Positions 5,701-58,549 are shown, counted from the first letter of the stretch. The stretch is DNA of 64,000 nucleotides from Alphaproteobacteria bacterium (GCA_964291675.2 OZ219866.1:3168001-3232000), one strand, 5' to 3'. Program-made: numbers and translations. Notes: generated by a model from the sequence alone, not told the origin.

Positions 5701-6786
5701 ATGTCATCGTCCAGCAAGTTGAAATCGCTCGCCTTCGGCGTCGCCGCCCTCGGCCTGGCCGCGGCGGTACCGGTCTCGGCGGTCGACGCCAAGTCGTTCA
5801 CGCTGCGCATCGGCGCCGGCCAGGCGATGAAGCCGCTCGAGCCGATCTTCATGGCGAGCACCTATTTCGTGCCCACCGTCAAGGCGCGGGTCGAGAAGGA
5901 GACCGACCACAAGATCCGCTTCATCGAGGCCTATGGCGGCACCGTCGCCGGGCCGTTCGATGTGCTGGAGTCGGTCGAGAAGGGGCTGTTCGACATCGGC
6001 CTCTGGTGCGCCTGCTTCGAGCCCACCAAGGCGGTCCATTTCGCCTTCCACTACTTCGTGCCGTTCGTCACCGACGATCCGGTGTTGCAGGACAAGATCA
6101 CCCGGAAGACCTACAAGCAGTTCCCGGCGTGGACCGAGTCGCTGCACAAGTATAACCAGAAGTGGCTCGGCGCCGGCACGTTCTCGTCCTACGGGCTCGG
6201 CACCAAGTTCAAGTGGTCCAAGATGTCCGACCTCAAGGGCCGCAAGATCGCCGGCGCCGGCCCCAACCTGCCGTGGCTGAAACTGTCCGGGGCGACCGCC
6301 GTCCAGACCAGCCTGAACGAGTCCTACAACTCGCTCCAGTCGGGCGTCTATGAGGGGCTGGTGATCTTCCCGACCGCCTGGCTCGGCTTCAAGCTCAACG
6401 AGCCGGCGAAGGTGTTCACCGTGGTCGGCTGGGGCTCGACGTCGCTCTACCAGATGACGATGAACCTCAAGAGCTACAACAAGCTGCCGCCCGAGGTGCG
6501 GAAGATCATCGACGAGGAGTCAGAGATCTGGATGGACAAGTCGGCCCAGGAATCCTCCAGGCGCTTCGATGCCTCGCTCAAGAAGCTCAAGGAGACCGGC
6601 AGCACGATCCAGTACTTGCCCCCCGAGGAGCGCGCCAAGATGGCCGCGGCGCTCGGCGACTGGCCGAAGCAGAACGCCAAGAAGTTCGACGGCCAGGGCC
6701 TGCCCGGCACCGCGCTGATGAAGGCCTATCTCGCGAACGCGGAAGCCGCCGGCATCAAGCTGCCGCACAAATACGATCTCGACTAG
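5701..6786 (+). CDS. dctP: TRAP transporter substrate-binding protein (DctP family)
   Basis: Signal peptide, EAYGGTV, DLKGRKI, YNSLQSGV, YNKLPPEVRKII. Confidence 0.85.
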   Translation: MSSSSKLKSLAFGVAALGLAAAVPVSAVDAKSFTLRIGAGQAMKPLEPIFMASTYFVPTVKARVEKETDHKIRFIEAYGGTVAGPFDVLESVEKGLFDIGLWCACFEPTKAVHFAFHYFVPFVTDDPVLQDKITRKTYKQFPAWTESLHKYNQKWLGAGTFSSYGLGTKFKWSKMSDLKGRKIAGAGPNLPWLKLSGATAVQTSLNESYNSLQSGVYEGLVIFPTAWLGFKLNEPAKVFTVVGWGSTSLYQMTMNLKSYNKLPPEVRKIIDEESEIWMDKSAQESSRRFDASLKKLKETGSTIQYLPPEERAKMAAALGDWPKQNAKKFDGQGLPGTALMKAYLANAEAAGIKLPHKYDLD

Positions 6787-49997: not shown

Positions 49998-51230
49998 ATG
50001 TCAACACTGTCCGGAAAACGGGTCGCCCAGCTCAAGCTCACATTGAATAAGCGCAGCGTCGAGGCCCTCATGCCGGCCGACAAACCCTTCATCGCCTGGG
50101 ACGACAGGCTGACGGGGTTCGGGGTCAGGGTACAGCCCTCGGGGGTGCGGTCCTATCTGGTGAACTACCGCGCCTCGGGCGGCGGCAGGCGGGCCGCCAA
50201 CCGGCGGCTCGTCATCGGCCGGCACGGGCGGGTCTCGGCAGAGCAGGCAAGACGCATCGCCCACGAGACGCTCGGCAAGGTCGCCGCCGGGGAGGACCCG
50301 GCGGAGGGGCGCACCCGGTCGCGGTCGACGCCCACGCTGCGCGAGGCCTTCGAGGAGTACCTGTCGATGGGGCCGGAGAGGAAGCCGCGCACCGTCGAGG
50401 TCTACCGGAGGACGGTGTATCACGATCTCGAGCCCTGGCTCGACCGGTCGCTCAACACAATCTCCCGCAAGGACGTCGAGCAGTGCTTCAACCGGCTGAC
50501 CTCCGAGATCGGCTGGGTGGGGGCCAACTCGGCGCTCATCATGCTGGGGGCGCTGTACCGGCGGCAATGCGTCGACGTCCAGGGTCTGCACAACCCGGTG
50601 GCGCAGTGGCGCGCGGCGGGCGGGCGGCTGCACCGCCAGCGGCGGCGGCGCATCCAGCCTCCGGCCGAGGTTCTGCCGCGCTGGCACAGGGGGATCGAGA
50701 AGGGGGTTCGCAACCCGGTGGCGCGGGATGCGCTGCGGCTCGGCCTCTACACCGGCATGCGCCATTCCGAGGTGCTGGAGCTACGCTGGGACATGGTGGA
50801 CCTCGATGCGATGACGCTGACGGTCGAGGAGACCAAGTCGGGCGAGCCGCTGGAGATCCCGATCGTCCGGCAGGTCGGGGAGATCCTCCGACGCCGCGCG
50901 GCCGAGCGCGGGAACTTTCCGGCGGAGAGCCGCGTCTGGGTGTTCCCGTCGGAGACCAGCGCCTCGGGGCGGCTCGTGACGACGCAGCAGCTGAACGCGC
51001 GGATCGGCGAGGCGGGCGGTGCGAAGTTCTGGTTCCATGCGCTGCGCAACTGCTTCATCACGGTGGCGGACCGGGAGCTGATGCTGCCGACCAGTCTCAC
51101 CAAGCGGCTGGTCAACCATGCGAGGCCCAGCGACGTCACCGAGGGCTACGCGTCGGACTGGACGGCGGACCAGCTCCGCGAGGCCGCGCAGCGCATCGCC
51201 GATCGCATCGATGAGCTGATCAAATGTTGA
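49998..51230 (+). CDS. Tyrosine recombinase/integrase with N-terminal arm-binding domain
   Basis: WDDRLTGFGVRV arm-binding region. Catalytic residues in TGMRHSE, TKSG, HALR, VNH and EGY. Confidence 0.93.
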   Translation: MSTLSGKRVAQLKLTLNKRSVEALMPADKPFIAWDDRLTGFGVRVQPSGVRSYLVNYRASGGGRRAANRRLVIGRHGRVSAEQARRIAHETLGKVAAGEDPAEGRTRSRSTPTLREAFEEYLSMGPERKPRTVEVYRRTVYHDLEPWLDRSLNTISRKDVEQCFNRLTSEIGWVGANSALIMLGALYRRQCVDVQGLHNPVAQWRAAGGRLHRQRRRRIQPPAEVLPRWHRGIEKGVRNPVARDALRLGLYTGMRHSEVLELRWDMVDLDAMTLTVEETKSGEPLEIPIVRQVGEILRRRAAERGNFPAESRVWVFPSETSASGRLVTTQQLNARIGEAGGAKFWFHALRNCFITVADRELMLPTSLTKRLVNHARPSDVTEGYASDWTADQLREAAQRIADRIDELIKC

Positions 51231-51241
51231 GCTCAACATTT
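51222..51241. repeat. Perfect 20-bp palindrome over the integrase stop codon
   Basis: AAATGTTGAG-CTCAACATTT. Confidence 0.8.
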
Positions 51242-51634
51242 TGACTATGCACTTATCGGTCGTGCGCAGCAGGACCGATAAGAGCATTGAGCTGAGCCGC
51301 ACGGCGGAGCGGTGACTCCGAGCTACGGCAAAGTATCCGCTCAGCAAGAGTCGACTACGCCAGGAAGTCACAGAAATGGGCGCGCGGTCCGATTTCATGG
51401 TTTAACTTGTCCACAAATTCGGTTGTTCCGGTGAGGAACTGACGACCGCGAGCGGGAGAACGAAAAAAGAAGGCAATTACATACCTAACTGTGCAAACAC
51501 AGAAACCAAACTGTCCCCAACGGCATTCCAACCGGAGACTACAGGACCATCACTGATCCAAACAGGCTAACTGTGAAAACCGTCCAAAAAAACACCATAA
51601 GCCTAAGACCAAACCCCCACAAAAAACACCTTGC

Positions 51635-51663
51635 TTGACCTCCTTAGATCGCCCTGCTATTCG
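51635..51663 (+). promoter_or_regulatory. Sigma70-like promoter of the tRNA gene
   Basis: TTGACC (51635-40), 17 nt, TATTCG (51658-63) with extended TG. The -7 T is missing, which is common in alphaproteobacteria. Confidence 0.55.
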
Positions 51664-51671
51664 TTCAACGT

Positions 51672-51759
51672 CTAGTAGTGGCGAAAATGGTAGACGCGAC
51701 CGATTACCAATCGGTTAAGTGTAATGCTTGTGGGGGTTCGAGTCCCTCCTACTAGACCA
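51672..51759 (+). tRNA. Class II (long variable arm) tRNA with anticodon ACC (Gly) on a tRNA-Leu-like body
   Basis: Acceptor CTAGTAG/CTACTAG, A73, encoded CCA. D arm GCG-AAAATGGTAGA-CGC. Anticodon arm ACCGA-TTACCAA-TCGGT. 16-nt variable stem-loop. T arm GGGGG-TTCGAGT-CCCTC. Confidence 0.9.
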
Positions 51760-51810
51760 GCGGGGACAGACTTCGGCATTGCTGATGTTTGGTCCCCGCA
51801 CTTCTATTTA
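51760..51810 (+). terminator. Long hairpin directly after the tRNA CCA, possible terminator or processing signal
   Basis: GCGGGGAC...GTCCCCGC closing stem with further internal pairing, followed by ACTTCTATTT. Confidence 0.5.
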
Positions 51811-51822
51811 TCCACCTACAAT

Positions 51823-52167
51823 CTACTCCCCGCCGCGTTCGACCGCCTTCAAATCAGTCAACACCGAAACAGCATTGTCTATCAGATAACCCTTGGTCTG
51901 GACCAATGAATCCCCGCTATCGGAAAATACCGAGTCCATCTCGCCTTTCATTCCTTCCAAAGCCTCAATATCACGATCCGCAAGAGCATTGCCGACGTGC
52001 CCGATAAACGAGATAAGTCCATCAACCGATATATCCGAACTATCCTCCTTCAACCCGGCTAATTCCTTCACTCGTTCTAACTCTTTCAAGTATTTCCCTT
52101 TCCTCAAATCTCGCAACAAGTCCTTGAACCAATTAGGTCTCCGCTTTGCTGACTGTAGAATTGTCAT
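51823..52167 (-). CDS. Hypothetical protein (114 aa)
   Basis: ATG preceded by a GGGGAA purine run, protein-like composition in AT-rich DNA, divergent from the transposase. Confidence 0.6.
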   Translation of the reverse strand: MTILQSAKRRPNWFKDLLRDLRKGKYLKELERVKELAGLKEDSSDISVDGLISFIGHVGNALADRDIEALEGMKGEMDSVFSDSGDSLVQTKGYLIDNAVSVLTDLKAVERGGE

Positions 52168-52208
52168 CTTTCCCCACTAAAATTTATCAAACAATCACCA
52201 ATAAGCCC

Positions 52209-52237
52209 TTGACAAAAGCACCATAAAAGCCTATATT
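52209..52237 (+). promoter_or_regulatory. Near-consensus sigma70 promoter of the transposase
   Basis: TTGACA-17 nt-TATATT. Confidence 0.7.
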
Positions 52238-52265
52238 AACACCATCAAACAAGGGATATTAGACG

Positions 52266-53201
52266 ATGAAAGCGCCCGGCAAATCGGACAGAGACGGCAT
52301 CACAATAATTCAATTATTCAAGATGTTTCCTGATGATGATACCGCTCAGGCTTGGTTTGAAGAAAAGCGGTGGGGAAAAGACAAAGATAACCCGACTTGC
52401 CCCAAGTGTGGCACCATTGACAAGACCAAGCGCACTCCGACACACACTATGCCCTATTACTGCAATTCGTGCCGGAGAGGTTTCAGTGTCCGCACCGGAA
52501 CCGCAATGCAGAAATCTCAAATCGGCTACCAGAAATGGGCAATTGCGATCTATATGACCATTACCAGCCTGAAAGGGGTTTCCTCAATGAAGCTCCATAG
52601 GGAATTGGGGATAACCCAAAAGTCAGCTTGGTATATGGAGCATCGCATTCGCACTGGCTTTGGTGGCGTTGATCTGCCTTTCGCCGGACCGGTCGAAGCG
52701 GACGAAACCTATATCGGCGGGAAGGAAAAGAACAAGCACAAGTACAAGAAGCTGAATGCCGGACGCGGCGGGGTCGGCAAGAGTATTGTTGCTGGCATTA
52801 AGGGTCGCAAGACCAAACAGATTACCGCCAAAGTCGTTTATGAAACCTCTGCAATGACTTTACAGGGTTATGTCCGGGCGAACACCAAAGAAGGCACGAT
52901 GGTCTATACCGACGAAAGCAAGTCCTACAAGGGTCTGCCCTATCACCAGTCAGTCAATCATACCGCCAAGCAATGGGTTGTCGGACAAGCCCACACAAAC
53001 GGGATGGAGAATTTCTGGTCTATTTTCAAGCGAGCGTATCACGGAACTTTCCACCGGATGAGCGCAAAGCACCTGCATCGCTATGTCAATGAATTCGCCG
53101 GTCGGCACAATATCCGGGAAATGGACACCAAGGACCAGATGACGGCGATCTTCCAAGGGATGGTCGGCAAGAGCCTGCCCTATGCCGATCTGGTGGCTTG
53201 A
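52266..53201 (+). CDS. IS1595 family DDE transposase
   Basis: N-terminal zinc ribbon CPKCG...YCNSC, FSVRTGT, VEADETYIGG, YTDE, HTNGMENFWS, YVNEFAGRHN. Confidence 0.95.
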   Translation: MKAPGKSDRDGITIIQLFKMFPDDDTAQAWFEEKRWGKDKDNPTCPKCGTIDKTKRTPTHTMPYYCNSCRRGFSVRTGTAMQKSQIGYQKWAIAIYMTITSLKGVSSMKLHRELGITQKSAWYMEHRIRTGFGGVDLPFAGPVEADETYIGGKEKNKHKYKKLNAGRGGVGKSIVAGIKGRKTKQITAKVVYETSAMTLQGYVRANTKEGTMVYTDESKSYKGLPYHQSVNHTAKQWVVGQAHTNGMENFWSIFKRAYHGTFHRMSAKHLHRYVNEFAGRHNIREMDTKDQMTAIFQGMVGKSLPYADLVA

Positions 53202-53227
53202 CAAGCCGTTTCCCTTCGTCCTAGCCT
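53198..53227 (+). promoter_or_regulatory. Sigma70-like promoter overlapping the transposase stop codon
   Basis: TTGACA (53198-53203), 18 nt, TAGCCT. Predicted start ~53234 coincides with the first base of the RNA stem. Confidence 0.55.
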
Positions 53228-53233
53228 TTTCCC

Positions 53234-53386
53234 TGCTATCGCACATAGACGCGCTGAGTCGGGTCGCCCGCTGAATAGAACAGCCGCAAGACCCGGCAGG
53301 GGTAGCTCCCCCGCCCGGCGAATAGGCGGGGTCTCTCACTTTCTGTGTGCGATAGCAACGGCCCGACACCATTCGGGCCGGTTGCT
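53234..53386 (+). ncRNA. Candidate structured RNA/5' leader, copy A
   Basis: 16-bp closing stem TGCTATCGCACATAGA/TCTGTGTGCGATAGCA. Inner stems GTCGGGTC/GACCCGGC and CCCCGCC/GGCGGGG. 3' hairpin CGGCCCGA-CACCAT-TCGGGCCG. Homologous to copy B. Confidence 0.65.
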
Positions 53387-53409
53387 GACTGGCGCAATGG
53401 AGGCGGGAA

Positions 53410-53832
53410 ATGAAGAAGATCGTGCTGGCGGGGATGGTTGCGGCCCTTATGGGTTGGAGTGGTTCGGTGGAGGCAAAGACTACCAAGTGTATTTTGAAGG
53501 GAGTCGGTTTTTCCGATGTAGATGCTCGCCAGTCTGCGATACTGGAACAAGTAGGAGCTACTTGCGAAACGATCATAGATGGACGCGCGATACAAAGACG
53601 GCAATCAGATACTACCGATATTTGCGGGCAAGCTAAGCAGGCTTGTAGCAATGTAATTTATTCCTGTAGGCGGAACGCGAGACTCGCACAAGCCGAACGT
53701 TATATGTGCCAGAATGCCACCAGTCATCGCATTTTGCTAAGTTGTCTCAAGACAAGAAACACGGCGGCAAAGCATTGCCGGTCTGCGACAAATTGCTTGA
53801 GGCAATACGGTTGTATGGAAAGTGTCCAATGA
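53410..53832 (+). CDS. Small secreted cysteine-rich hypothetical protein
   Basis: GGAGG RBS, Sec-type signal peptide MKKIVLAGMVAALMGWSGSVEA, 10 Cys. Confidence 0.75.
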   Translation: MKKIVLAGMVAALMGWSGSVEAKTTKCILKGVGFSDVDARQSAILEQVGATCETIIDGRAIQRRQSDTTDICGQAKQACSNVIYSCRRNARLAQAERYMCQNATSHRILLSCLKTRNTAAKHCRSATNCLRQYGCMESVQ

Positions 53833-54137
53833 CTGTCGTTCATGCGCTGGTGCTTGTGGCCTATAGCGCACTGGCTCAAGAAGTCACTCGGACTAAGATC
53901 ATGTCTTTTCACAAGAACCATTTCTCTTGTGTTCAGACTATGAATAAGGAACGGTTCAGGGGTCGCCGGTTACAATTCAATGAGAACTACGTCTGCCTAC
54001 AGCTACAGGATTCCCACATAGGCTCACAGCTGCTACGTATGGGCGGGAATGATCGGATTGTGATTCATGGAACCAAGCGGTTCTTTAACAAGCCAAAGCG
54101 GGATAGGTGGTATCAGAAGCGGAAATGGGATAGGTGA
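53829..54137 (+). CDS. Hypothetical protein
   Basis: ATGA coupling with the upstream gene, hydrophobic N-terminus. Confidence 0.55.
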   Translation: MTVVHALVLVAYSALAQEVTRTKIMSFHKNHFSCVQTMNKERFRGRRLQFNENYVCLQLQDSHIGSQLLRMGGNDRIVIHGTKRFFNKPKRDRWYQKRKWDR

Positions 54138-54334
54138 AGGAGGATGAAGGGATGACGAAAACGAAGGTTGTCAAAGGCGAGAACTTTGATATTGATCTTC
54201 AAGCCGAAATCAACGGACAATGGGAAACGGTTGTCACCATTCCTTGTTCATCGGAGGAACAGCATGAGAAACTTTCGAAAGGAATACTTGATTGGGGGCA
54301 CTATGTAATGAATGAAACTCGGTGTAGTCCTTAA
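54134..54334 (+). CDS. Hypothetical small protein
   Basis: Overlaps the upstream stop. Alternative ATG after GGAGG. Confidence 0.5.
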   Translation: MKEDEGMTKTKVVKGENFDIDLQAEINGQWETVVTIPCSSEEQHEKLSKGILDWGHYVMNETRCSP

Positions 54335-54443
54335 TCCCTGTTCGTCCTTTTTGTCATATGTCTTGACGAATCGAAGCTGGTCTCGATCTAACGTGTAGAT
54401 TTGATCCACTTCACCGTTTGAACGGGTTTGGTGGAAAAGTCAA

Positions 54444-54464
54444 TAGACAATAGTCTATTGTCTA
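54444..54464. promoter_or_regulatory. Perfect 10-1-10 palindrome, candidate operator
   Basis: TAGACAATAG-T-CTATTGTCTA. Confidence 0.5.
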
Positions 54465-54801
54465 CCGGTAGGGCCTTGTTCCGTTTCGCACTGGACTTCT
54501 TCGCTGGCTCTGGCCCATTTGTGGTTGGATCGGATCACGAAGAGACAGACGACGCGGACGATGCCCAGTAAACGCAATCAAACGTATCAAATCGATGTCG
54601 AGGTAGTCACCCTGAATTCGGGTCAGCCGGCAGTTCGCCTTGCATGCCTTTGGTGCAATTGTCTCAGCCCCTCCCCGTTCCGGTCCGCGATCGCCCTCAA
54701 TTCTATCGCTCCTCGATGCAGCACAGCTGGCACAGGCTCTTTCAATAGACCTCTTTCGCGCCGTGACATGCGGTTGAAATCGCGGCTGCCGGGGCCTTTA
54801 G

Positions 54802-55134
54802 TCATGGTCCGCTCAAATTCTTGAGTTCTTCTTCGTAAAACTTCTTTCGCAAAGCCTTGTAAACCCGTTCGTATTCCCACTTCCCGGCAATACAGGTCGG
54901 CCAATAAGAGGCGTCTTTTCTGGAACAGTGGCTTAGCCTCTTTTTTCCTTCAGACGTTCCGGTTATGGCCTTGAAGGCTCGATAATAAGCCCGTTTGTAC
55001 GCCTTTTCGGACAGCTTTATTGCCGCAATCATCTCCTCGGCAAGAAGAACGTCCTCCTTCTCGCCGGAAGCCGCTTCGCTCGTCGTCGTAACCACCAACC
55101 CGACTACCACTGACACCAAGAGGACTATACGCAT
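54802..55134 (-). CDS. Small secreted hypothetical protein
   Basis: GGAGG RBS, signal peptide MRIVLLVSVVVGLVVTTTSEA, two Cys. Confidence 0.7.
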   Translation of the reverse strand: MRIVLLVSVVVGLVVTTTSEAASGEKEDVLLAEEMIAAIKLSEKAYKRAYYRAFKAITGTSEGKKRLSHCSRKDASYWPTCIAGKWEYERVYKALRKKFYEEELKNLSGP

Positions 55135-55157
55135 GCCACCCTCCCCGGCTTGTGTGT

Positions 55158-55310
55158 CGGCCCCGGCTGGTGCCGGGCCGTGTCATCGTCGAGCAGAGAG
55201 CAAGAGGTTCTACCTTTTCGCCCGTGGCAGCGTAGCTACTCCCTTCCGTCGATCGGGCTCTTCGATTCAACAGAAGACGCAACGTGGCGGGCTCCGCTCG
55301 ATCAAGTGAC
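55158..55310 (-). ncRNA. Candidate structured RNA/5' leader, copy B
   Basis: Closing stem GTCA..TCGAGCGGAG/CTCTGCTCGA..TGAC. Shares motifs TGAATnGAAnAGCC, GGGAGTAGCT, GGCGAAAAGG and ACGGCCCGGCACCA with copy A. TTGACG upstream at 55345-55340. Confidence 0.6.
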
Positions 55311-55735
55311 GGGAAGATGCTCCGTCGAACCGAGAAAAGCGTCAACCCCCCTGTGAGTCTTGCGGGATTTCGACGGCGATGCTACGGTGAGAAATGGTAG
55401 TCTCGGCCACAAGGGTCGGGGCACTGAATCACCGATGGGGCGGCATCCGAATCGGTTCACACAGGTCCAGCATGGATAGGCATCCCACGGCAGACTTTCC
55501 CTCGGAACGAACCTGTGACGGAACGAATTGCGTAAACCGGCCAAGCGTGCGCTCACCGGTAGGCGAGGAAACATATGGAAGACCCGCGTGCTCAATGCTT
55601 TAGGGAACTTCGAAGGCTCGAAAGTCTAGGCCATGAGGGCCTTCAGTATCTTTTTCACGAGAACCGGGAAACCGCTGAAGGCGGGATCGATGCCTGGATA
55701 ATCTGGGATCGGACCGGACAGGTCTTGGCAAGCGC

Positions 55736-55999
55736 ATGAGCCGGATCGTACGAAAAAGGAGGTCCGGATGCCGAATTGGGATAGCAACCGATGTTGCTGT
55801 TCGGGTGGCCGATCTTAAATCGGCCGGGAAAGTACCAAATGACGCGAAGTACAGAACGCTTTCTTCCGGATTGACATACAAACAGGCGAACGCTGAAGAG
55901 AAAGTACGACGACAGCGTTGTGGGCCGCATTGCGATGGAGAGTTGGGCGGTAGACCGAAGCCAGGAAGAGTATGGAGCGTCTATAGGATTGACTGGTGA
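55736..55999 (+). CDS. Hypothetical protein (87 aa)
   Basis: ORF with protein-like pattern (CRIGIATD...GLTYKQA...CGPHC...WSVYRIDW), convergent on the IS1595 remnant. Confidence 0.55.
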   Translation: MSRIVRKRRSGCRIGIATDVAVRVADLKSAGKVPNDAKYRTLSSGLTYKQANAEEKVRRQRCGPHCDGELGGRPKPGRVWSVYRIDW

Positions 56000-56003
56000 T
56001 CGT

Positions 56004-56234
56004 TCAGTCGGCCACCAGATCCCGATACATCAGCCTGCAGCCCGTGAGCGCTGCAACGCCAGTCATCGTCTGCGCGTCCGTCTAAGCGCGCCGGGCGTTG
56101 TGCTGGCCGGAGAACTCTTTGACGTATCGTTCGGGGTACGCCTTCGAGATCTTGCGGTAGACGCATTTGTGCGCTCGTTTCAGCGTCGCAGAGAATCTCG
56201 CTATTCCCTCCGTATGAACGTCCCCGCGGACATA
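56004..56234 (-). pseudogene. Degraded IS1595 transposase C-terminal remnant
   Basis: YVRGDVHTEGIARFSATLKRAHKCVYRKIS...RYVKEFSGQHNAR* then ...RLMYRDLVAD* aligns with the C-terminus of 52266-53201. Confidence 0.8.
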
Positions 56235-56289
56235 GACCGCCGCCGGCCCGCACGGCTGGGGAAAGGGAACGGCGGATACCTGCAAGGAG

Positions 56290-56553
56290 ATGTGGAGGCA
56301 GGTCGCCGCGGACATCAATTCCCTCCCGCCCGACGTGCGCACCCGGCAATACACCTCGGCGATCGTCAAGTCCGCGCAGGCGATGTACCGCTGGTGCGAG
56401 GCGAACATGGCCTCCTGCGCGCGCCAGAGGGAGGAGGTCGAGCCGCGGGGATGCGCCCTGATCCCAGGGGTCGTCACCTATACCCTGAATCGAAAATTGT
56501 CCTGGACGGTGAACTGCACGAACACGACCTTGATGCTGCCGGGGAAGTGCTGA
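56290..56553 (+). CDS. Hypothetical Cys-containing protein or gene fragment
   Basis: ORF with host-like codon usage; no recognisable domain. Confidence 0.35.
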   Translation: MWRQVAADINSLPPDVRTRQYTSAIVKSAQAMYRWCEANMASCARQREEVEPRGCALIPGVVTYTLNRKLSWTVNCTNTTLMLPGKC

Positions 56554-57051
56554 GCGGTGCTGCGCGACCCTCTCACTTATCTGAGGGTGAACGAGGCGGC
56601 GTGTCGGGGGAATTAGGAGTTCTGCCCCTTTCTTATTTACCCGCCCGGCCTGAGCGGGTTCAACCGTGCCGGTGGATCGGGAGATTGGCGATATGAAGTG
56701 CTGGGTCGGCATCTCTATGGACGTTGCGGCTCATGTCGCCCCGCTCAAGGCCGCGAACTTGGTCCCGGCCGACGCCTCGTGGAGGACGCTGGCCGAGAAG
56801 CTTACCTACGACGAGGCCGTGGTTCTCGAATACTCCGAGCGAAGGGAATGCGGCCCCCTTTGCCGGGGCGCGGGTCGCGCCGAAGAAGCGCCGGATCGCC
56901 ACCTCGGGTCCGTGATCTCCGGGGCGGCGTGCCCCGCCAACCCGAGACCCTGCAACCCCCAACCCGACACCGACCAACTCAAATCACGGCGCTACGAAGG
57001 CGTCGAACACCCCCATGCGCGCGCAAAATCAGGCGACAATCGCTCTGTTCC

Positions 57052-57627
57052 ATGAATAAGTCGGGCTACCACGTCGAGCCGTACACCCCCCATGCGACGG
57101 CGCCGATGGGCACATGGGGGAACGTCGGCGGCGCACTCTCAGCGCAGACCGTCGCGAGCTCGTTCAAGAGCGACTTCTCGGCACCATCCACTACCGCTAC
57201 AACGTGGTGGCCACCGCAGTCCCCGCGAACGGCTATGTCTACGAGGTTCGCGGAAACCATTTCTACGACACCTACATTCCTTCCGGGGCAACAACCGAGC
57301 GCTGGCGGCAGCGCGCCGATCCGCCGGGATGGCTGGGCGAGGGCAACCGGACGGAGCTTCTGTCCCGTACGAGCGCCACGGGCGACTGGGGCTACGTCAC
57401 CCACTCCAACAGGGTCGAATACCTGAGGGCCTTCACAGCGGGCACGGCCGAGCATACAGAGCCGATCTGGACTCGGCTCGGGACGGCGGCGGAGGGACGA
57501 CCAACGTCTTCGACTGGGCGAGACGCTGGAAGACTACGAGGATCGGGTCCCGGCGGACGATGCGATCGCCGCCGCGGCCGTGGAGGCGAGGCGCGAGGCG
57601 CATGCGGGGTGCACCGGCGATGGCTGA
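57052..57627 (+). pseudogene. Frameshifted hypothetical gene remnant
   Basis: Protein-like segments in successive frames (MNKSGYHVEPY.., ..GTIHYRYNVVAT..YDTYIP.., ..TLEDYEDRV..*). Confidence 0.45.
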
Positions 57628-58354
57628 TCACATGAAATCCCGTCGACGCCCCTCAGCGCGCCGCGCGCAGGGACAACTGCGATGACAGATGGCGCAGGTT
57701 TCGGTGAATGAACTCGATAAAAAAAGATATGTCTTCCATATAGTGCCGCGCTTCGAGTCGCTCCACCTGCTCATACGAGTAGCGCGCCTTATAAACCATC
57801 ACGTCTTGGTCGAAATACTCGAGAATATCTTCCAAAGTGGACAGCCTACGGCGGGCAGGCGGTACGGGAGGGTTGGCGGGGTCTTCGAAGTGCAGGTAGG
57901 CGACCATCTTAGTGTTGCAGCCTATGTCCTGGGAGAGCCTGTTGAGGCGCACCTTCTCCAGATTGGGCAGGAGGCTGTACAGTTTTACCAGACCGTGCGT
58001 GTTGTCGTATGGAAGTTCACTTATCCGGAGCATCAGCTTGAACATTAGCTCTAGGGATGTTCCTAAATTGAAGTGCGAGACCGCCTTCATGGACGCGCAG
58101 GCGTCGGAGTTCTCGTCCACATTGGCCTTTCGTATCCACGCTTCCAAGAGGCGGGCGGCCTCCTTGAAGTCATGAATATTTTGGCAGAGAAACGTGAGGG
58201 CGAGCCTCTGTTCTGGGTTAGACATTATTGGGTTTCCTTCTCTAGCGCGACCCTGGAAGACTACGAGGACCGGGTCGCGGCCGACGATGCGATCTCCGCC
58301 GCCGCGCTCAAGGCCTCGCGGGACGCGCACGGGGTGTGCGCCGGGCATAGCTGA
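57523..58354 (+). repeat. Imperfect 105-bp direct repeats (57523-57627 and 58250-58354) flanking the HEPN gene
   Basis: They encode TLEDYEDRVPADDAIAAAAVEARREAHAGCTGDG* and TLEDYEDRVAADDAISAAALKASRDAHGVCAGHS*. Confidence 0.75.
57653..58225 (-). CDS. HEPN-like domain protein
   Basis: SLELMFKLML...THGLVKLYSLLP...ARYSYE pattern of HEPN-fold proteins; lower GC than host genes. Confidence 0.6.
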   Translation of the reverse strand: MSNPEQRLALTFLCQNIHDFKEAARLLEAWIRKANVDENSDACASMKAVSHFNLGTSLELMFKLMLRISELPYDNTHGLVKLYSLLPNLEKVRLNRLSQDIGCNTKMVAYLHFEDPANPPVPPARRRLSTLEDILEYFDQDVMVYKARYSYEQVERLEARHYMEDISFFIEFIHRNLRHLSSQLSLRAAR

Positions 58355-58549
58355 TGGGGGACGCTACATATCGCCCAACGTAGCCGCCCCCGGGCGAAAC
58401 GGCACGATCACGCCGTTGTCGCCGGTTTTCCTCTCCGCGATTTCTCCGTCATCGGTACCACCGCCGAAGACATTTCGGCAAGGCGGTGGAGCATAGCCGG
58501 TCGGGTTACTCCGGCGCCCCCTGTTGGCGATCATAGTTCGATTGCGGCG

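Follow-up and report, generated by a model that had tools for sequence, protein, structure and literature searches.

sRNA-Xcc1 (Rfam family RF02221) was first found in Xanthomonas campestris and has been described as a small RNA (sRNA) borne on integrons, transposons and plasmids. According to the primary reports, it occurs in X. campestris as a discrete 88-nucleotide (nt) RNA whose ends have been mapped and which gives one Northern band of ~100 nt (PMC2996969), in integron cassettes upstream of symE and in the same orientation (bioRxiv 10.1101/2025.06.18.660453), in APSE phages upstream of an ORF6N gene (bioRxiv 10.1101/2020.03.17.996009), and in Xylella as seven transcribed copies (PMC12189769). 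Here we describe, in the genome of an Alphaproteobacteria bacterium (GCA_964291675.2), an element of ~165 nt which by sequence and model alignment is a distant, enlarged relative of sRNA-Xcc1, a kinship documented below. Two copies, A and B, lie in a 64,000-nt stretch of this genome (OZ219866.1:3168001-3232000; hereafter the window, from whose first letter all positions are counted), each ahead of a gene for a protein with a signal-peptide-like start. We consider it very probable that the element is a structured leader RNA that works in cis and is of the same kind as sRNA-Xcc1, and it probably controls translation of the gene behind it. The composite statement, that of a structured cis-leader akin to sRNA-Xcc1 exerting two-fold translational control, is the one we favour on balance.

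The two copies are convergent, occupy positions 53198-55345 and share one architecture, as proposed by a first-pass annotation of the sequence: the TTGAC motifs, closing stems, GGAGG sites and ATG codons all lie where it had placed them, its motifs are colinear in A and B (mean column identity 76% across the 258 columns of a pairwise alignment), its hairpin ACGGCCCGRCACC..GGGCC is found in both, and the closing stems are unlike in sequence yet paired in both copies. Both copies are genuine, but they are not a pair, as had been supposed, but members of a family of well over 150 copies; BLAST gives no direct link between A and B, each being linked instead to further copies. Their parts are listed here, with bit scores from R1, a covariance model built from a MAFFT alignment of 29 copies (ORF, open reading frame; SD, Shine-Dalgarno sequence).

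53224-53389, plus strand: copy A element, 142.9 bits
53198-53226, plus strand: promoter-like site of copy A, with -35 box TTGACA (53198-53203), 17-nt spacer and -10-like box CTAGCC (53221-53226)
53234-53249, plus strand: 5' strand of closing stem Pv, copy A, TGCTATCGCACATAGA, pairing with 53342-53357 and beginning 7 nt past the -10-like box
53258-53266, plus strand: 5' strand of P1, copy A, GTCGGGTCG, partner 53359-53367, equivalent to the RF02221 outer stem
53267-53330, plus strand: core of copy A (P2, internal loop, P3, P4, P5)
53267-53272 with 53325-53330, plus strand: P2, copy A
53273-53282, plus strand: internal loop of copy A, GAATAGAACA, facing GAATA at 53320-53324
53283-53285 with 53317-53319, plus strand: P3, copy A
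53295-53297 with 53313-53315, plus strand: P4, copy A
53299-53302 with 53308-53311, plus strand: P5, copy A, loop TAGCT
53331-53357, plus strand: inner strand of copy A, made up of linker J2 (53331-53341, pyrimidine-rich, CTCTC..CTTTC) and the Pv 3' strand (53342-53357)
53359-53367, plus strand: 3' strand of P1, copy A, CGGCCCGAC, doubling as 5' arm of hairpin T
53359-53366 with 53373-53380, plus strand: hairpin T, copy A, loop CACCAT, with no U tract behind it
53399-53403, plus strand: SD of copy A, GGAGG, with ATG at 53410
53410-53832, plus strand: ORF of copy A, 140 amino acids, signal-peptide-like start MKKIVLAGMVAALMGWSGSVEA, no Pfam family
55318-55150, minus strand: copy B element, 101.1 bits
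55345-55317, minus strand: promoter-like site of copy B, with -35 box TTGACG (55345-55340), 17-nt spacer and -10-like box GAGCAT (55322-55317)
55310-55292 with 55198-55182, minus strand: Pv, copy B, duplex of -25.1 kcal/mol with two small internal loops
55283-55275, minus strand: 5' strand of P1, copy B
55274-55269 with 55214-55209, minus strand: P2, copy B
55258-55256 with 55222-55220, minus strand: P3, copy B
55247-55226, minus strand: P4/P5 hairpin, copy B
55208-55199, minus strand: J2, copy B
55180-55172, minus strand: 3' strand of P1 and 5' arm of T, copy B; 3' arm of T at 55167-55158
55144-55140, minus strand: SD of copy B, GGAGG, with ATG at 55134
55134-54802, minus strand: ORF of copy B, 110 amino acids, signal-peptide-like start MRIVLLVSVVVGLVVTTTSEA, no Pfam family

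In copy A the 16-nt strands of Pv pair perfectly when G-U pairs are counted, and the whole copy folds at -90.4 kcal/mol (z -4.06), a value equalled by none of 200 shuffled sequences. The fold of copy B is weaker (-76.3 kcal/mol, z -2.02; equalled by 5 of 200 shuffles). Its P1 pairs at only 7 of 9 positions and its P5 is imperfect, which marks it as a diverged copy; its P2, TCTGTT/GGTAGA, pairs as U-A, C-G, U-A, G-U, U-G and U-G, and is compensatory with respect to A.

Like sRNA-Xcc1, the element has an outer stem of the form G(U/C)CGGG../..CCCG(G/A)C followed by ACC, with P1 closing around P2, an internal loop GAAUA(C/G)AA(C/G)A facing GAAUA, and P3. It is likewise multi-copy with a patchy distribution, lies just 5' of an ORF in the same orientation, and has, between P2 and the P1 3' strand, a sequence complementary to its own start region. 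It differs from the compact form of ~87 nt, in which P3 has a short loop and a second hairpin sits inside P1: P3 is extended by a P4/P5 insert (28-32 nt), J2 and the Pv 3' strand stand in place of hairpin 2, and the addition of the Pv 5' strand and the T 3' arm gives a second global fold, so that the enlarged form reaches ~165 nt against 87. Its cargo, unlike that of RF02221, consists mostly of exported proteins. RF02221 occurs in 39 of the 151 genomes of an even sample across the phylum (24 above cut-off), and the enlarged form in none of the 150 other than the genome studied here.

These likenesses are borne out by model searches in both directions. At gathering thresholds, Rfam returns only a transfer RNA (tRNA) for the whole window (51672-51756) and no family for the copies, and yybP-ykoY, T-box and other Rfam leaders are matched neither at that level in the window nor at E <= 10 within 53100-55450, in agreement with the earlier judgement that the layout does not fit yybP-ykoY. 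The only relevant match in a permissive search of 53100-55450 is RF02221, which aligns to copy A over its full length (model positions 1-87, with a 28-nt insert in the P3 loop) at 26.8 bits against a gathering score of 53. A further copy, D, gives 26.6 bits, also full length, with a 32-nt insert in the same loop; copies B and C have no RF02221 match at E <= 10. Conversely, R1 matches 5 of 30 RF02221 loci at E < 1e-3, exactly at the RF02221 positions, and in these alignments P1, P2, the internal loop and P3 align while the P4/P5 insert is missing. The novelty claimed in the first pass thus holds insofar as no Rfam family includes the element at gathering score, but not for its core, which is related to sRNA-Xcc1. 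As a side observation, many of the RF02221 loci (L268-L297) share a conserved terminator-like sequence, ..CACCCGTCAG..GCGGTATTTTTG.., 30-70 nt upstream of the RNA, and their downstream ORFs appear, by eye only, SymE-, BRO-N-, Rha- or phage-regulator-like.

Covariation confirms the element as a structured RNA, of a family that goes undetected by current Rfam models. The four inner helices P2-P5 all show compensatory changes, in keeping with the covariation first proposed from A and B. In an alignment of 75 distinct copies (A4), such changes occur in 6/6 pairs of P2, 3/3 of P3, 4/4 of P4 and 3/4 of P5, and a plain MAFFT alignment (A3) gives the same picture, with C-G to U-A exchanges in P2 (CCCGCU/GGCGGG), CUC/GAG in place of GCC/GGC in P3 of one copy, and variable P4/P5. 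Across A4, 93.8% of cells are paired versus 89.2% in shuffles, and 18 of 26 pairs change on both sides versus 7.8, a count reached in none of 500 shuffles; in slid registers pairing drops to 32-52%. An alignment of 80 distinct copies from a genome collection described below (A5) gives 95.8% versus 88.5%, with 15 of 26 pairs changed on both sides. The cells of P1 are paired at 94.9% (A4) and 97.9% (A5) and its sequence is nearly invariant; the innermost pair is GC in 45 copies, AU in 10, UA in 6 and CG in 2, and the wobble positions vary only in ways that keep the pair.

Two pairings suggested in the first pass did not hold up. Only 4 of 113 copies can form in full the stem thought to close a GGCGAAUA loop, and it survives in only 2 of the 38 copies in which its 3' arm varies; that arm covaries instead with CCCGCU at 53267-53272, as helix P2. 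For the same reason, the pairing of TCGCC with the GGCGA loop is not the conserved one. Other candidate pairings were rejected. The first CCCGCU, taken as P2 partner, leaves C.A in 4 copies and shows no compensation when P2 changes, so that P2 is specific to the second CCCGCU; as an anti-Shine-Dalgarno strand it would find GCGGGAG in only 6 of 107 start regions. The pairing of GUCGGGUC with an ACCCGGC bulge, present in the minimum-energy fold of copy A, is mismatched at one position without compensation in 10 of 29 copies, and a small CCCG/CGGG hairpin 5' of P1 lacks covariation. A conserved CCCGCU between Pv and P1 (CGCGCU in copy A, 53250-53255) fits none of the tested pairings. The terminal loop of P5 (53303-53307 in A) always contains a 4-nt palindrome, mostly AGCU, and GAUC or GGCC where the hairpin is replaced (variants L065, L053, L073 and L070); these palindromes might permit loop-loop dimers or be due to chance.

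The closing stem Pv behaves differently from the inner helices. It spans 15-19 base pairs (mean 17), its sequence differs in every copy, and it always pairs. Since it is not alignable by sequence, it was tested copy by copy: native partners pair at a mean of -26.9 kcal/mol, compared with -13.7 for 745 foreign pairs. On the sense strand, the Pv stems of the 60 best copies contain 78 G-U pairs and 3 single A.C/C.A mismatches, while the reverse complement contains 41 A.C/C.A mismatches. This bias indicates that the constraint acts on the gene's sense strand; in double-stranded DNA the two kinds of mismatch would be equally frequent, which speaks against a role of these inverted repeats at the DNA level, although a role of the sense strand as single-stranded DNA would be compatible with the same argument.

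Hairpin T forms in nearly all copies, without a U tract, and its 3' complement is conserved (-15.2 versus -11.1 kcal/mol when shuffled, better in 121 of 138 copies). RNAalifold chooses P1, which crosses Pv, and T shares a strand with P1. The element thus has two mutually exclusive global folds, one with Pv and T, the other with P1 and a free inner strand, and the existence of mutually exclusive pairings, noted as switch-like at first reading, is upheld, here for P1 versus Pv and P1 versus T. Mean nearest-neighbour energies over 89 copies are -30.5 kcal/mol for Pv, -16.8 for T, -15.1 for P1 and -17.3 for the inner strand with the start region. By these values P1 and T are near-isoenergetic competitors, and Pv plus T is the default fold by ~15 kcal/mol.

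Judged from its flanking sequence, the element is in leader position with a promoter-like site, SD and ATG of its own. An exact TTGAC lies upstream of 63 of 136 distinct copies, in 57 of these 63 at 58-67 nt before P1, with a hexamer resembling (C/T)A..(C/T)T 17 nt further on; the RNA would be transcribed from a predicted start near stem Pv. Behind the element, 68 of 75 copies, and 73 of 81 from the collection, have an SD together with an ORF of 45 codons or more inside 190 nt; the start codon lies a median of 16 nt past the end of the model. Two loci depart from this spacing (L060 and L054), where the ORF starts ~170 nt away and a second conserved GC-rich, hairpin-like segment lies in between, ~30-170 nt downstream.

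The inner strand pairs preferentially with the start region of its own copy. Across 86 copies the mean is -17.2 kcal/mol for native versus -14.3 for foreign combinations (Wilcoxon p 3e-5), and 19 copies rank under 0.05 where 4 are expected; in copy A the pairing with 53382-53409 reaches -23.6 kcal/mol and outranks those with each of the 85 foreign start regions, which puts this copy first of the 86. The tendency is weaker than in RF02221 itself. There, an SD and ORF lie within 160 nt in 23 of 30 loci, and hairpin 2 with its linker, which together make up the stretch from P2 to the P1 3' strand, is complementary to a pair of arms that flank the GGAG of the locus's own gene; these arms vary from locus to locus and covary, and in 23 loci native pairing gives -18.8 versus -12.8 kcal/mol, with 11 of 23 ranking under 0.05. 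In both families, the start-region pairing and P1 would together make an H-type pseudoknot, its stems presumably separated by 0-2 nt. We also considered a general GCAAC motif preceding the SD and rejected it, since only 12 of 108 copies have it.

From these features we infer the following mechanism, the best-supported one at present. Each copy would act as a self-contained 5' leader of a messenger RNA (mRNA), comprising a promoter, the structured RNA of ~165 nt, a ribosome site and the gene. Its P1, P2, asymmetric GAAUA-rich internal loop and P3 would represent the sRNA-Xcc1 core, enlarged by the P4/P5 hairpin and supplemented with two strands, the Pv 5' strand and the T 3' arm. In one predicted fold, the default by energy (fold B), the 5' end and the inner strand would form Pv, the P1 3' strand would be locked in T, and the start region would be free. 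In the other (fold A), P1 would close the core as in sRNA-Xcc1, and the inner strand (J2 plus the Pv 3' strand) would pair around the SD and mask initiation. The choice between them could be set by a factor or ligand acting on the conserved core, or by 5' processing. The cis-leader assignment is much the firmer part of this proposal; the two-fold translational switch is tentative, and we rate it a little under even.

A comparison may be drawn with type I toxin mRNAs, in which long-distance 5'/3' pairings (hok 'fbi' and others) set access to the start region. The element similarly has a long, copy-specific pairing of the mRNA 5' end and two-partner sequences that are evolutionarily frozen. It is unlike them in that no antisense RNA partner was seen, the pairing stays inside the leader and short of the mRNA 3' end, and the cargo mostly does not consist of toxins.

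Several observations weigh against the interpretation given above. Firstly, the similarity to RF02221 stays below the gathering score, and 8 copies from other phyla have no RF02221 match at E <= 1. Secondly, only 2 of the 9 pairs of P1 change on both sides; its near-invariance means that support for this helix comes mainly from one pair, from wobble-consistent single changes and from homology. The model also guided alignments A4 and A5, and part of the 3' strand was fixed by the pattern of the collection search; as the copies are related and the alignments lean towards the model, the cell counts are not independent events. Thirdly, Pv energy is barely strand-specific (-26.9 versus -26.3 kcal/mol, the sense strand being better in 40 of 75 copies), and RNAduplex counted 77 G-U pairs on the Pv reverse complement too. 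Fourthly, 67 of 86 copies do not stand out in the start-region test, an exact complement of the outer 5 nt of the stem lies upstream of the SD in 12 of 108 copies where 3-4 are expected, and a scan of the whole element against the start region is hardly better than shuffled (-24.9 versus -23.9 kcal/mol). Finally, in 88 of 89 copies fold B is favoured over fold A, by ~15 kcal/mol, and it would also form first during transcription, so that a switch would need a helper, and the leader may simply be constitutive.

A constitutive leader is the alternative that fares best, even if we think it unlikely. Pv and the compact core would then protect the mRNA 5' end, stabilising or insulating the transcript without any switching, as a portable module that expresses acquired genes independently of the host. 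5'-terminal stem-loops do protect bacterial mRNAs, and as Pv starts ~7 nt after the -10-like box, the 5' end would indeed be paired; the strong energetic preference for fold B, the diversity of the cargo and the position of A and B in a low-GC island beside tRNA, integrase and IS1595 transposase genes all sit well with this. A leader of this kind would need neither ~60 near-invariant nucleotides in loops and two-partner strands nor a conserved hairpin T in competition with P1, and it would not explain why inner strands are complementary to the start regions of their own copies.

The cargo itself varies widely. The proteins behind A and B look unrelated, as noted at first reading (no BLASTP alignment at E <= 100), and both have a signal-peptide-like N-terminus, which by a crude heuristic of our own (not SignalP) is shared by 50 of 68 downstream proteins; a lipobox, typically LAACGGGGGG, is found in 24 of the 68, many being Gly-rich lipoproteins. 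Among 113 non-redundant downstream proteins, Pfam assigns Glyco_transf_25 to 5 and TbpB_B_D to 5, and CsgG, SNase and methyltransferases to 2 each; other families are singletons and many proteins have none. No family thus occurs in more than 5 of the 113, and no shared pathway emerges. In another genome, a protein related to that of copy B is encoded behind a copy of the element (L129). Judged from these assignments, the varied cargo fits a portable expression module, which retains the mobile-cassette half of the first-pass reading; the lack of a single shared function argues against its riboswitch half, at least for a classical metabolite riboswitch.

Such a riboswitch, with the core as aptamer and the choice of Pv/T or P1/start-region pairing as expression platform, strikes us as less likely still. 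A conserved, covarying, aptamer-like core does lie in a 5' leader, with conserved loop and junction nucleotides between its helices; P1 and T are near-isoenergetic, and a distribution over several phyla would fit a universal ligand. Translational riboswitch platforms with a pseudoknotted P1 similarly have a P1-closed core whose 3' strand can enter a competing hairpin, and a pyrimidine-rich strand that can mask the SD; the element differs from them in having a third competitor, the 5' end, and neither a coherent regulon nor a known ligand. As to exclusive helices linking core to start region or terminator, P1 competes with T and Pv, masking is clear in only 19 of 86 copies, and no terminator U tract is present. 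The cargo has no metabolic or transport theme (family 25 glycosyltransferases 5, TbpB-like 5, CsgG 2, nucleases, methyltransferases; of 113), and no ligand can be named. In addition, sRNA-Xcc1 precedes symE-like and phage-regulator-like genes, by eye in our loci and, for symE, according to a recent report (bioRxiv 10.1101/2025.06.18.660453).

A broader speculation, which we put forward as improbable but worth stating, is that the element represents a new class of sensing RNA, whose invariant core would bind a universal signal (a small molecule or ion, or some conserved component of the machinery for translation or transcription) and flip the default fold to the start-masking pseudoknot.

Less probable again than a classical riboswitch is a stand-alone or processed trans-acting sRNA to which the gene behind is incidental. 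The discrete RNA of X. campestris (PMC2996969) and the Xylella homologues detected as transcripts (PMC12189769) set a precedent, and the P1-closed domain of ~110 nt (53258-53367 in A) could be released. Yet T is not followed by a U-rich terminator, an SD and start codon stand at a fixed short distance in 68/75 and 73/81 copies, the inner strand shows complementarity to the start region of its own copy, and a conserved promoter-like site lies right at the stem. A released sRNA and the cis role are in any case not mutually exclusive.

The cis-leader copies A and B lie in what appears to be acquired DNA, as shown by the neighbouring genes:

49998-51230: tyrosine integrase gene
51672-51756: tRNA gene
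52266-53201: IS1595-type transposase gene, its stop codon overlapping the -35 box of copy A

Together with a fall in G+C from ~0.70-0.74 to 0.45-0.60 between about 51000 and 58500, these genes place both copies in an acquired island (49998-58500), whose ORFs at 53706-54137, 54134-54334, 55920-56696 and 56698-57426 have no Pfam family. A connection between the element and the neighbouring tRNA, raised in the first pass, found no support. A Thermoanaerobaculia record (L169) has a tRNA gene at 6565-6637, some 900 nt away from its copy of the element, an arrangement like that of the window, and this may reflect islands at tRNA genes. Another copy in the same genome, F (L005 ~1484-1860; C2:2336347-2336509 plus upstream sequence), retains only its 3' half, followed by an SD, an ATG and a signal-peptide-like ORF. 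An antisense group II intron (RF02003, 82 bits; RF02005, 34 bits) abuts the remnant in the P4/P5 region with its GTGCG 5' end, and by sequence seems to have inserted into the hairpin of copy F.

Group II introns of this kind target DNA stem-loops, and attC sites carry the core motif GTTRRRY. A DNA-level element (an attC-like site, an invertible segment with inverted repeats or a miniature transposon) could draw on the interrupted copy, on the long inverted repeats around a conserved segment of ~105 bp, and on the patchy occurrence (18 of 78 genomes) with copies in an acquired island, but it is very improbable: the repeat arms differ between copies where a recombinase or transposase site would be conserved, their mismatches on the sense strand are overwhelmingly G-U, the inner helices covary as RNA helices, the core keeps one orientation relative to promoter and ORF, and the arms end in TGCAA/TTGCA and not in the attC core. 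With attC sites the element shares a structure-conserved, sequence-variable stem beside unrelated, small, cassette-like genes. It differs in lying 5' of the gene with a promoter-like site, in having its conserved part at the centre and not at the stem base, in lacking R and L boxes, and in a covariation and G-U bias that point to RNA; copy-specific arms, this bias and the constant orientation place it outside integron attC sites and invertible segments, a comparison in which integron integrase or invertase neighbours were not searched for systematically. sRNA-Xcc1 itself lies in integron cassettes, according to one report (bioRxiv 10.1101/2025.06.18.660453).

The covariance model, whose construction the first-pass annotation had called for alongside the Rfam scan, finds further homologues of the leader in many genomes. 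The genome studied here has 7 R1 matches of 147 to 29 bits, that is A, B and five more; 10 of 11 genomes of the genus carry the element, and 18 of 78 genomes of the order contain 78 matches, 1-12 each. A BLAST survey of relatives found the element in 20 of 151. Within this genome, three further copies (L003, L004 and L079; C2:1575048-1586229) lie inside 11 kb; D (minus strand) and G (plus strand) are divergent and 2.2 kb apart, with copy E, which has lost its 5' part, 8 kb off.

Searching a species-representative genome collection with a degenerate pattern from the 3' part returned at least 119 stretches, from which 80 loci were taken. R1 gave 81 matches in 77 of the 80 and so confirmed the whole element; it found no match in the other three (L186, L188 and L226). 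By our own tally of record titles, with the taxonomy of three names checked, the 80 comprise 39 Alphaproteobacteria, 17 Gammaproteobacteria, 13 Acidobacteriota, 8 Gemmatimonadota and one each of Chloroflexota, Nitrospirota and Latescibacterota, making seven groups and six phyla. Five multi-megabase records from outside the Proteobacteria contain 2, 7, 3, 6 and 2 matches, and a Vicinamibacterales record (L174, 1357-2353) has four within 1 kb, two per strand, recalling the tandem sRNA-Xcc1 copies reported in Xylella.

All 80 record titles start with 'MAG', and we met the enlarged form only in metagenome-assembled genomes. Several bin labels in these titles may be akin to those of MAG sets from marine hosts. 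In the phylum sample of 151 genomes, R1 matches only the genome studied here and two sRNA-Xcc1-type loci, with no enlarged form in the other 150; blastn found no match to the element in the 72,556 plasmid records of PLSDB, and in IMG/VR the pattern matches one contig. Recent transfer between phyla was considered and is not shown, the best between-group identity being 0.75: a match of 92-93% over 4-6.6 kb that seemed to cross phyla joins Acidobacteriota records, Candidatus Multivorans being an acidobacterial genus. Our searches of the literature on sRNA-Xcc1 and on structured RNA motifs and covariation in sponge symbionts showed, among the papers listed, no earlier description of the enlarged motif.

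These results add a large structured RNA family, of well over 150 copies, that current Rfam models miss. They also provide evidence, at the sequence level, for a cis action of sRNA-Xcc1-type RNAs on the gene that follows, with whose start region the inner strand covaries, and this revises their usual label as trans-acting virulence sRNAs. Should the speculation of a new sensing class prove true, the joint travel of promoter, sensor and ribosome site with the gene would make the element a regulated, host-independent cassette for expressing surface and secreted proteins, present in six phyla or more, and sRNA-Xcc1 would represent this device in its smallest cis-acting version. Among the genes led by the element are those for surface lipoproteins with a TbpB-like barrel, for family 25 glycosyltransferases and for numerous secreted proteins without a known family, a repertoire of the sort by which the cell surface is shaped. 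By sharing a leader, these surface genes would constitute a set that is co-regulated and horizontally shuffled among poorly known bacteria.

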